Positions 10,484 through 12,485 of a stretch of 20,866 nt of DNA are shown piece after piece (within the stretch, counting starts at the first letter, position 1; every line of letters starts with the position of its first letter). The notes under the pieces were generated by a model. The model was given only the letters and a program-made list of their open reading frames with translations. It ran no database searches and had not been told where the DNA came from. Location: the IMG/VR virus record IMGVR_UViG_2534682222_000015, positions 1 through 20,866 of that record; one strand, given 5' to 3'. Source of the stretch: a virus (Duplodnaviria; Heunggongvirae; Uroviricota; Caudoviricetes). The position numbers and the translations under genes were made by a program.

Positions 10484-10504
10484 AAACCCGGCGCGATGGC
10501 CGGG
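10482..10504 (-). terminator. Intrinsic terminator of the cI / rex-slot operon (CCCGGC-loop-GCCGGG + U5 on minus strand)
   Basis: Hairpin 10487-10504 immediately after the stop at 10511-10513, A-run 10482-10486 on plus strand. Confidence 0.6.
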
Positions 10505-10510
10505 TCACTA

Positions 10511-11353
10511 TTAAGGCTTCTTCTTATCGTGCTTTACTAGTGCTTTGTGTGTTTTCTTGATACTGCTTCTAACTTTTTGAATTTTATCTTGAGACAACTT
10601 AATACTCTCAGGTGCCGTTCCTGTGTTGGCAATCATTACATTTCTAACAGATCTTCCAACTGTTTCAGCGGCATTTTCAAGTTGCACCTGCCCCTTAAGA
10701 TTCTGGTTTCTTATTCTTGCTTCTGTTTGTGTTATTCGGAAAATGTTAGCAGCAAGTTCTTCGCTGCCCATAAAATCAAGCATTGTTCCATCTTTTTTAG
10801 TTAGTCCTTTGCGGGCTTTCAATTGCGTGAGATTCATGTTGTACATCCCGCGATATCCTGCATTTTGAAAAAGACCATAGTCTACTACGCCATGCTTATG
10901 TGCCACGTGGCTAAGAGTCTTTTCTCTTGAAGTGATTTCACCACGCAAATAAACTCGGTTAACTGCATCATGGTTATGATACGCCGCTTGAATTTCTGCT
11001 GCCAGACCAGCAAAGTATGCCTGAGCATTTGCAACTTTCTGATTGCTAATATCGCCATTCATTACAGTTAAATAGCAAGCAAATCGAGTTAATTTAAAGT
11101 CATTTTGCGCATTCTCAGAAGGCATCTGAATGAAGTTGTCGTAGACGGGGATATCAAGGTTAACGCATACAGACGTTGCCTTGTTGATGGCTTTTAGTAT
11201 CTGGTCCATACCATTATACCCAAGCATCATCGCCAGATCAGATGCGAACCAATAGGTAACACCATTCTCCCTGGCGAAATCATCAAATGTTAACTGTGAT
11301 GCGTCATCGAAAACGGTAATTTGCCTACTCATATCACACCCAAACTTACTCAT
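10511..11353 (-). CDS. Bro-N/KilA-N-like N-terminal domain protein, possibly DinD/RhuM-family (280 aa), in the position lambda uses for rexAB
   Basis: N-terminal motif …TYWFASDLAMMLGY… typical of Bro-N type domains; C-terminal segments (RFACYLTVMNGD, FQNAGYRGMY, MLDFMGSEELAANIFRITQTE) resemble, from memory only, E. coli DinD-like proteins; AAGGGA RBS. Confidence 0.7.
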   Translation of the reverse strand: MSKFGCDMSRQITVFDDASQLTFDDFARENGVTYWFASDLAMMLGYNGMDQILKAINKATSVCVNLDIPVYDNFIQMPSENAQNDFKLTRFACYLTVMNGDISNQKVANAQAYFAGLAAEIQAAYHNHDAVNRVYLRGEITSREKTLSHVAHKHGVVDYGLFQNAGYRGMYNMNLTQLKARKGLTKKDGTMLDFMGSEELAANIFRITQTEARIRNQNLKGQVQLENAAETVGRSVRNVMIANTGTAPESIKLSQDKIQKVRSSIKKTHKALVKHDKKKP

Positions 11354-11425
11354 TGAACATCCCTTATTTTAATATAAATTAGAAAAATTGTCCGTTGATT
11401 ATCGCAAGCCATTAGAGCTTGACCT

Positions 11426-11454
11426 CTCATCACCCAAACGTCTCATCAGGCCAC
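11426..11454. repeat. Direct repeat copy 1 (degenerate duplicate of the last about 30-45 bp of cI), 87 bp downstream of cI
   Basis: ctcatcacccaaacgtctcatcaggccac vs copy 2 cttatcacccaaacgtctcttcaggccac (27/29 identical), with further shared gcaacaacc nearby. Confidence 0.7.
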
Positions 11455-11512
11455 CATAAGCACGATCGCAACAACCGAGAGCAAAGTAACCACGCCTACT
11501 ATCAGATATTCT

Positions 11513-11541
11513 CTTATCACCCAAACGTCTCTTCAGGCCAC
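11513..11541. repeat. Direct repeat copy 2, spanning the cI stop codon and last 7 codons
   Basis: See copy 1. Confidence 0.7.
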
Positions 11542-12164
11542 TGTGACGCAACAACCTTACCAACAACCCGACAGTGCTCATTACACGGCATCATGGGGAA
11601 TTGAGGATTCAATGGCTGGAGAAATATCTGCCCGCTGTCCTTGATCAGTTTCTTAAACGTGAATTCATCGCCACCTAATCTGGCGATACAGAAATCACCA
11701 GGGTCAACCGGTTCATCTGGATCTACAAGAATTAGCATTCCTTCAGGGAAGCTAGGCTTTGAACCAGCAGGAGCCGTCATGGAATGGCCTTCAACCTCAA
11801 GCCAGAATGCATTGTCGCTGGCTTTCTTTGTCGTGCTTACCCATCTCTCTGCATCACGTTCGGTGAATGTGCGAAATTCAGGTGAGAACATACCAGCTTG
11901 TACATGCGAGAAAACCGGGTACTCAAATTTCTGGAATACTGGCCCATTGTCTTCGCCAAAAAGAATAAGCGAAGGAGACACCTTAAGAACCTCAGCAAGC
12001 GTTAACGCATCATCAGCGCTAACTTTTCGCGTGCCAAGCTCATAATTCCCCAGTCGTGAAGGCGCAGCCCAGCCGCAAAGGTTGGCTAACTTTGCTTGGC
12101 TGAGTCCTTTAGCTTCGCGAAGGGACTTTATCCTCTCGCCGATAATTTCATGCATAGTTTTCAT
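11517..12164 (-). CDS. cI: CI-type prophage repressor (N-terminal HTH, C-terminal LexA/S24-like autocleavage domain with GHSM Ser and FKK Lys); non-lambda immunity
   Basis: 215 aa; C-terminal domain resembles P22 C2 (GDSMTAPAG…PEGM.ILVDP…ATFKKL…PLNPQ.P); located divergent from cro across operators. Confidence 0.85.
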
Positions 12165-12171
12165 GCCTCAA

Positions 12172-12243
12172 TAATATCACGCCATGTGATTGTGGTATCT
12201 ACACAATATGGTGTTGACAGTTAATCACATATCGTGAATAATT
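12172..12243. promoter_or_regulatory. OR/PR/PRM region: operator dyads TCAC-N5-GTGA at 12177-12189 and 12225-12237 plus weaker ACAC-N5-GGTG at 12201-12213; PR -35 TTGACA 12214-12219, -10 ATAATT 12238-12243
   Basis: Read directly; same dyad family as OL; classical three-operator divergent arrangement between cI and cro. Confidence 0.6.
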
Positions 12244-12269: not shown

Positions 12270-12485
12270 ATGAACAACATTGCAGAGCAGCGAAAAAAAA
12301 TTGGGATTTCGCAAGCCGCTCTGGCTTCTGCCATAGGCTGGGGGCAGTCGCGAATTGCCAATTATGAGCTTGATATCCGCACCCCTGGTCTGCCGGAAAG
12401 TCGCCTTATTGTCGAGGGCCTGAACCGTCTCGGTTGCAATTGCTCCCTTGATGACGTTTTCCCACCAACTACCAGCGCAGCCTAA
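12270..12485 (+). CDS. cro: Cro-like HTH repressor (71 aa)
   Basis: Small HTH (…IGISQAALASAIGWGQSRIANYE…) first gene of PR operon, opposite cI. Confidence 0.75.
   Translation: MNNIAEQRKKIGISQAALASAIGWGQSRIANYELDIRTPGLPESRLIVEGLNRLGCNCSLDDVFPPTTSAA

Follow-up and report, generated by a model that had tools for sequence, protein, structure and literature searches.

The direct repeat behind the prophage repressor gene in the DNA analysed here (the window, i.e. the whole stretch of 20,866 nt) delimits a short unit that recurs in many other genomes, and it is close to certain that this unit is a conserved cassette and a joint for the exchange of cargo genes, whatever the fate of the reading frame inside it. 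The whole conserved cassette covers about 115 bp (11428..11542) and consists of repeat copy 1, a small open reading frame (ORF) and repeat copy 2. The combined explanation that we consider probable, on the basis of the comparisons described below, is that the repeats bound a cassette with a hydrophobic micro-ORF, and that copy 1 serves as the homology patch at which the cargo is exchanged.

The duplicated repressor terminus

The window is a segment of a lambdoid prophage or phage, with a mosaic match to its closest phage records, Sf101, mEp043 and HK97. Its immunity region contains a cI-type prophage repressor gene on the minus strand (11517..12164; 215 aa, C-terminus ...QWPEETFG-stop), a PR-like promoter (12214-12242), and cro on the plus strand (12270-12485). 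The repressor combines a helix-turn-helix (HTH) domain (HTH_3 of Pfam) with a Peptidase_S24 domain (Pfam, 1e-26), and according to tblastn it shares 86% amino acid identity with the cI of Salmonella phage S107 and 64% with lambda cI. The rex slot downstream of cI is occupied by a cargo gene on the minus strand (10511..11353), which encodes a 280-aa BRO-N/DinD-like protein. This protein matches Bro-N of Pfam, DinD of NCBIfam with 4.5e-57, which is below the curated cut-off, phrog_8036, and, with 6e-85, PDC-S13 of PADLOC, which is a candidate defence family. A terminator-like stem-loop lies 3' of the cargo gene (10485..10506, minus strand), and no terminator-like site is predicted between cI and the cargo gene, which is consistent with one transcript that covers cI, the small ORF and the cargo. 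In E. coli E2348/69, a gene with 84% identity to the cargo gene of the window also follows a lambda-like cI, there with only one repeat copy.

The two copies were localized by a repeat search to 11424-11454 (CTCTCATCACCCAAACGTCTCATCAGGCCAC) and 11511-11541 (CTCTTATCACCCAAACGTCTCTTCAGGCCAC). They are 31 nt long with 2 mismatches (94% identity), and the spacing from start to start is 87 nt. The original prediction had described a 29-bp repeat of the cI 3' end with 2 mismatches, and this repeat is real and extends 2 nt further to the left; at up to 3 mismatches, the window contains exactly two occurrences of the 29-mer, and 100 dinucleotide-preserving shuffles contain none. Likewise, the further similarity that had been noticed past the 29-mer (gcaacaacc) is real and corresponds to the 10-mer CGCAACAACC, which is found at 11467-11476 and, within cI, at 11547-11556, and which is read as VVA in the small ORF as well as in cI. 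Its offset is 80 nt as opposed to the 87 nt of the main block, and the 10-mer is therefore reached via a 7-nt indel; once it is added, the duplicated tract comes to about 47 nt. Taken alone, the 10-mer is modestly significant (125 of 5000 shuffles, p about 0.03). When the 117 nt that follow the cI stop are aligned locally, with gaps, to the last 124 nt of cI, the score is 50 and exceeds that of all of 2000 shuffles (maximum score 38), which argues against a chance similarity.

Copy 2 (11511..11541) comprises the last 8 codons and the stop codon of cI plus 6 nt; on the minus strand, an SD-like sequence (GAAGAGACG) and the GTG with which the small ORF starts are part of it as well. Copy 1 (11424..11454) is a fossil cI terminus and contains the stop codon at which the small ORF ends. 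Read on the minus strand, it gives WPDETFG-stop in the old cI frame, in which copy 1 lies because 87 nt correspond to 29 codons. Direct reading of the cI frame between the cI stop and copy 1 reveals a succession of stops (TGA, TAA, TGA, TAG, TAG), so that copy 1 has ceased to be translated in the frame from which it derives. We considered a simple 87-bp tandem duplication of the cI end and rejected it, as the sequence that follows copy 1 is unlike the sequence that follows copy 2, and as the similarity to cI ends about 47 nt from the stop. A target-site duplication by a transposon was dismissed in view of the length of the duplicated tract (31-47 nt).

Distribution and boundaries of the cassette

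A megablast search with 11250-11700 against phage records resulted in a 113-bp match to phage phi80 with 98% identity, which includes both copies and the spacer. In phi80, the cassette lies between the cI stop and gene 40A, where no feature is annotated, and as it is located in the gap after the cI stop, copy 2 is there a non-coding fossil, which begins 5 nt beyond the stop of a repressor with an unrelated C-terminus; the GTG/ATG start of the small ORF corresponds to 34562-34567 of phi80 (NC_021190). Of 5426 complete E. coli genomes, 66 carry the cassette, and these are mostly phi80-derived lab strains (DH5alpha, DH10B, TOP10); it is also found in NEB 5-alpha, XL10-Gold, JM83 and similar strains, with the coordinates 1359467-1359579 in DH10B (NC_010473). 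The cloning strains show the same 113-bp match with 98.2% identity as phi80 and therefore presumably acquired the cassette via the phi80 remnant. Natural E. coli isolates have the cassette as well. In KL53, G3/10 and NCTC 13148, it is 100% identical to that of the window, and in these strains and in CB7286 (99-100% identity in the four) it lies behind a phi80-type or another S24 repressor and before a DUF6932 gene. Pattern scans recovered it from 54 IMG/VR contigs, 38 metagenome contigs and two Enterobacter species representatives. One of the IMG/VR contigs (L012) has 2.5 kb in common with the window at 99.8% identity, and in the gut-metagenome contig L095 the flanks of the window are present on both sides of the cassette. 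With a wobble-degenerate DNA pattern, one extra synonymous variant was detected in IMG/VR, and in GTDB species representatives the same pattern gave mostly chance matches, plus the two Enterobacter genomes.

In the 56 loci with a readable upstream ORF of at least 60 aa, the upstream gene is a co-directional HTH/S24 repressor. The repressors upstream of the cassette fall into 5 clusters at 50% identity, and the first genes downstream fall into 24 clusters, among which matches to defence profiles are found, namely to BstA (8e-124), to PDC-M63A, and to PDC-S13 (6e-85, the cargo of the window itself). For a conservation profile, 59 cassette instances were aligned, which reduce to 42 distinct contexts. 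The non-consensus fraction is 0.51 upstream of copy 2, drops to 0.16 in the copy 2 core and to 0.013 in the 72 nt between the copies, i.e. in the ORF, and rises again, first to 0.15 in the distal portion of copy 1 and then, past copy 1, to 0.58. At both flanks, the similarity thus breaks off abruptly at the cassette edges.

On the cargo side, similarity in the 42 contexts ends at the outer end of copy 1 or no more than about 12 nt away from it. In Salmonella phage S107, the stop of a true lambda-type cI leads directly into the leader and the BstA-type cargo that follow copy 1 in the contigs L007 and L021, and in Escherichia phage PhiR5_2, a true lambda-type cI end is likewise joined to the leader and KilA-N-like cargo behind copy 1 of L008. 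As copy 1 takes the place of the true cI end before the same cargo, it can be regarded as a fossil cI terminus and as a homology patch, and the latter would explain the position of the cargo-side breakpoints at its outer edge. Lambda-type cI termini are common to hundreds of phage records. The alleles of copy 1 can be read as intact cI ends (WPDETFG-stop, WPDELFG-stop, WPDEVFG-stop), and one variant has only synonymous changes and another stop codon. In lambda-type contexts (the window, L009, L012, L014, L015 and L038), the live cI end is formed by copy 2. Elsewhere copy 2 is a non-coding fossil, located 0-25 nt after the stops of other repressor ends, of which there are at least six, and its part from ..GGCCTGA through to the start codon is retained in every case.

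The comparison with prophages that carry other cargo, which had been proposed for this junction, hence favours a conserved breakpoint (42 contexts, S107 and PhiR5_2). The original prediction had interpreted the repeat as a recombination scar, and this idea holds insofar as copy 1 is homologous to the cI 3' end and lies at a conserved breakpoint. It does not hold as far as a one-off scar of the cargo acquisition by this particular phage is concerned, since a bounded cassette with 98-100% identity is present in phi80 and about 100 other loci, in combination with 5 repressor and 24 cargo clusters. We infer that the repeats act as recombination joints, and recombination in the repeats could alone set the cargo-side junctions, without any selection on the ORF.

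Some details of the flanks deserve mention. In the window, the 11 nt just past the fossil stop (TGAGAGGTCAA; 11419..11429, minus strand) are still shared with L015, and the junction to the window's own cargo therefore lies near 11418. The shared ...GAGAGGTC continues into an intrinsic terminator in L009 (where 1 nt is inserted), in L050, and, after an 18-nt insertion, in L013 and L019. This terminator, GGTCGCAGAGATGCGGCC with a T-run, is located directly 3' of the cassette in L009 and L050 and about 20 nt later in L013 and L019; in these four contigs, the repressor operon ends with the micro-ORF, and the window keeps only the first ~11 nt of this flank. A search for a pre-insertion state, in which a cI end would lead straight into the GGTCGCAGAGATGCGGCC terminator, returned only L050, which has the cassette. 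On the minus strand of the window, 11350-11433 harbour a 27-aa ORF (VMRGQALMACDNQRTIFLIYIKIRDVQ-stop) that starts with the GTG of copy 1 and whose TGA overlaps the ATG of the cargo gene (ATGA), and a coupling chain from cI via the micro-ORF and the 27-aa ORF to the cargo is conceivable. As only the first 11 nt of the flank are shared with L015, the 27-aa ORF is not kept there and is probably fortuitous. Fossil repressor C-termini are stacked around the cassette: GKVFWSAHSW-stop follows copy 1 in the flank with the DUF6932 cargo (L003-L006, i.e. KL53, CB7286, G3/10 and NCTC 13148), in CB7286 a ..HSW-stop fragment lies between the repressor stop and copy 2, and ETKLRLV-stop follows copy 1 in many contigs (L026-L028, L035, L037 and others).

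The small ORF between the copies

The ORFs that had been called over the repeat on both strands were regarded as artefacts in the original prediction, and this assessment is borne out by the polymorphisms, of which 1/6 is synonymous in the 60-aa frame of the minus strand and 0/6 in the 61-aa frame of the plus strand. What had been overlooked is a hydrophobic ORF of 24 codons in the third frame between the copies (11446..11520, minus strand), which starts in copy 2 and stops in copy 1. Its GTG overlaps the cI stop as GTGA. The peptide has a GRAVY of 2.26, and its best 19-residue window averages 3.01 on the Kyte-Doolittle scale, which is consistent with one transmembrane helix.

This ORF is unbroken in every complete instance among about 100 loci, and no truncated or interrupted cassettes were detected in scans by N-terminal, central or N-plus-C-terminal patterns. 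A GTG or ATG start codon is kept in every instance; about 60% have ATG as codon 2, and in L068 the GTG is lost and the ATG is kept. This latter locus (L068, 11736-12020) is a metagenomic phi80-like copy with four clustered N-terminal changes (MWEYMIVGVV...), in which the frame is still open. About half of the contexts have a GAGGTG at a distance of 5 nt upstream from the GTG, and the window has a GAGACG that was judged by eye to be weaker. The variable sites of the ORF comprise four synonymous ones (TAT/TAC, GCG/GCT, GTG/GTT, GCC/GCT) and three I/M/L exchanges. As the ORF is near-invariant in nucleotides across the ~100 loci, these 7 variable sites are all there is, and purifying selection cannot be rigorously demonstrated from them; the near-clonality may reflect recent spread rather than constraint. 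An antisense frame that shares the wobble positions has the same polymorphism score as the small ORF; within the cassette, this frame lacks a start codon, and in the paralog described below it is interrupted by a stop.

A diverged tandem paralog of the ORF, MMRDYLIVGTVTVLTATVIFLIVA-stop, exists in L013. Equal in length to the small ORF, it has an SD and an ATG of its own and ends with the same VA-stop inside a repeat copy, and it differs from the small ORF by 21 nt, which are distributed 7:4:10 over the codon positions. In a metagenome scan with a free centre of 31-49 nt, no further paralogs were found, and the near-invariant allele alone was recovered. No Pfam, NCBIfam or PHROG model matched the small peptide or its paralog, five variants of the peptide are absent by exact look-up from a collection of 15 billion proteins, the peptide sequence string was not found in the literature searched, and a tblastn search of the phage collection gave phi80 as the only match. 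A concatenated two-peptide query of the protein collection returned two singleton variants only, P0001 and P0002. The former is a stop-loss form of 36 aa that reads into the ETKLRLV fossil, and the latter is a form with a 1-nt deletion that ends with ...AIVLWWPEETFG, so that copy 1 is read in the old cI frame (WPEETFG). A programmed frameshift that would fuse cI to the peptide was considered as well and discarded: no slippery heptamer was seen, and going upstream from the GTG, the frame of the peptide is already closed after 5 codons. We infer that the PRM transcript would serve for the translation of the small ORF, coupled to the termination of cI, and that the product would be an inner-membrane peptide.

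What alternatives exist for a functional ORF? In principle, copy 1 could be a decaying fossil of a replaced cI, the spacer could be junk and the ORF a chance frame, all of this in a cassette that is nothing but a neutral scar and that would be widespread solely because it is young and hitch-hikes between two modules with heavy exchange. Such a history would agree with the fossil repressor termini that are common at the junction (GKVFWSAHSW-stop, ETKLRLV-stop, MPQTYRKHG-stop) and with the near-invariance of the ORF including its synonymous sites, which fits recent common ancestry, and the breakpoints at the repeat edge on the cargo side follow from homology alone. However, junk should be truncated or deleted in some of the ~100 loci with their more than 40 distinct flank pairs, and this is the case in none of them. 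Moreover, the junctions with at least 6 non-lambda repressor ends all lie within ~25 nt upstream of the start, with the ribosome-binding region being kept, the start codon is kept in all instances, and the L013 paralog keeps the frame, the length, the hydrophobicity and the start and stop at a nucleotide divergence of 29%. We therefore consider a purely neutral scar unlikely.

Another possibility is that the constraint lies in the nucleic acid and not in the peptide. The repeats had alternatively been thought to be protein-binding sites or part of a regulatory RNA, and the whole unit could also be a regulatory or processing RNA within the cI transcript. The 72-nt core is indeed invariant in its nucleotides, wobble positions included, and between the two units of L013 the 31-nt junction is far more conserved than the bodies of the ORFs. 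On the other hand, no Rfam family matches anywhere in the window at gathering thresholds, the fold of 11400-11560 is no better than that of shuffles (z = +0.31 for sense and -1.18 for antisense), and neither a dyad symmetry in the repeat nor, by the repeat search, an inverted repeat inside the unit was detected. The paralog alters 21 of the 72 nt and yet keeps the reading frame, and the coding constraint of cI already accounts for the repeat sequence. A cis-acting nucleic-acid element thus appears very unlikely.

In size and hydrophobicity, the small peptide resembles toxins of the Ibs, TisB or ShoB type, and it could therefore be the membrane toxin of a type I toxin-antitoxin system that is held in check by an antisense RNA. 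As is the case with such toxins, including Hok, a small hydrophobic peptide is encoded on a mobile element, and the strict nucleotide conservation could mirror RNA-RNA pairing. However, there is no sigma-70-like promoter on the antisense strand within the cassette, and as both cassette flanks vary, a conserved antisense gene is not possible outside of it; unlike the type I systems, the cassette thus has no conserved antisense RNA locus. It also differs by lacking any HMM match: no antitoxin RNA of Rfam was recognized, and no toxin model of Pfam or NCBIfam matched at E <= 1 except for noise. Furthermore, a constitutively expressed repressor operon would be an odd place for an unrestrained toxin. 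This explanation seems to us very improbable.

Proposed mechanism and relation to known systems

We thus return to the combined explanation. The two copies are the boundaries of a ~115-bp cassette that lies directly behind the repressor gene in many lambdoid prophages and that would encode, on the cI strand, a hydrophobic peptide of 24 residues with a single helix. Copy 2 would provide the ribosome-binding region as well as the GTG start that overlaps the cI stop (GTGA), and with a start at this position, the peptide would be made from the PRM transcript in lysogens, be it by re-initiation or with the help of its own SD. Copy 1, as fossil lambda-type cI terminus, would provide the stop codon of the peptide. 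As many lambdoid cI genes share the same ~31-nt end, copy 1 would also be a short homology patch, and a recombination between copy 1 and the cI end of another phage would join the cargo of that phage, often a defence gene, to the cassette. With respect to the role of the peptide, our guess is that a lysogeny-expressed inner-membrane micro-protein might modulate a membrane function of the host or block superinfection.

A more far-reaching reading, which we regard as tentative and put forward as a possibility that may well fail, is that lysogens really express the peptide as a membrane micro-protein, that its C-terminal codons and stop derive, in a shifted frame, from a fossil of the 3' end of the repressor itself, and that lambdoid phages would generally build arrays of micro-genes in their repressor operons, which are bracketed by duplicated repressor termini as portable patches for swaps of defence cargo. 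Two independent cases of such bracketed micro-genes were found, namely the 24-aa ORF with lambda-type cI ends and a 39-aa ORF with 29-nt repeats of a '...MPQTYRKHG-stop' end.

Junctions at gene boundaries of lambdoid phages were reportedly already discussed by Juhala et al. in 2000 and by Clark et al. in 2001. The cassette shares with the known mosaic-junction fossils of these phages that a stretch with homology to a gene end lies exactly where the neighbouring modules differ among relatives, and that other phages carry the same cargo behind a true cI end. It differs in that a conserved ORF is enclosed by a direct repeat made up of the fossil and the live gene end, and in that the whole unit, and not the patch alone, is kept behind five repressor clusters. 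Mosaics of lambdoid phages are made by relaxed homologous recombination that is catalysed by phage Rad52-like recombinases of the Red-beta/RecT type (De Paepe et al. 2014, PMC3945230), and this, in combination with the wide occurrence of the lambda-type cI terminus, supports the view of copy 1 as a short homology patch. Mosaicism is known to be concentrated in the interval from cI to N, where rexAB and bstA are found (Owen et al. 2021, PMC8585504, citing Degnan et al. 2007), and the genes in this interval are presumed to share the repressor promoter (PMC8585504). Like lambda rexAB and BstA of BTP1, the ORF of the cassette is found at this position and on this strand and presumably shares the repressor promoter, but the micro-ORF is the constant element between the repressor and the variable cargo, and nothing ties it to abortive infection.

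Bacterial small membrane proteins, such as KdpF, MgtS and AcrZ, are a further point of reference. In common with this group, which includes the 32-aa YoaK family, the cassette has a very short hydrophobic ORF with a single helix that was overlooked by gene callers, and a prophage gene of the YoaK family is present in the same slot in some contigs. In contrast to most of these proteins, the peptide has only 24 aa, it lacks similarity to modelled families, and it is known from sequence alone. Fossil gene ends in lambdoid phages, mosaics flanked by homology, small membrane proteins, and the defence slot behind cI are thus already known. What appears to be new is the micro-ORF family, which is unannotated even in phi80, and the position of a small transmembrane ORF within repeats of a repressor terminus as a recurring layout.

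If the peptide is made, phi80 and, via its remnant, DH5alpha, DH10B and TOP10 carry an unannotated gene for a membrane micro-protein, and this gene would be part of the most strongly expressed prophage operon and adjoin the anti-phage defence slot. Irrespective of its translation, the cassette is a clean and well-replicated case of a gene terminus of ~31 nt that serves as a joint for the reassortment of repressors and defence cargo between heteroimmune lambdoid phages, and the small ORF between duplicated repressor ends offers a concrete and testable picture of how such junctions are built. Transcriptome and ribosome-profiling data that already exist for cloning strains could be used to test the expression of the cassette.

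The post-repressor slot appears to be enriched in tiny membrane ORFs. The above-mentioned 39-aa transmembrane ORF, MSDLIIPILITLLIIGLVGIVLRLDKVFFKRKDERDDFK, lies between the live '...GSMPQTYRKHG-stop' end of an S24 repressor and a perfect 29-nt direct repeat of this end, which is the repeat architecture of the window with another repressor type and another ORF. It is present in L022 (at about -240 to -30 relative to the small ORF) and also in L041, L046, L050, L055 and L056, and its only annotation in Klebsiella, Salmonella and E. coli is 'hypothetical'. Downstream of the cassette, L024, L029, L036 and L045 have a 32-aa ORF (MRIGIAFP..GGYATPG.), with that of L029 being named 'YoaK family small membrane protein' at NCBI, and in L025 a 26-aa ORF, MRKYLAIIIAAALAALIVWQWVLDVG, is located at the same place downstream of the cassette.
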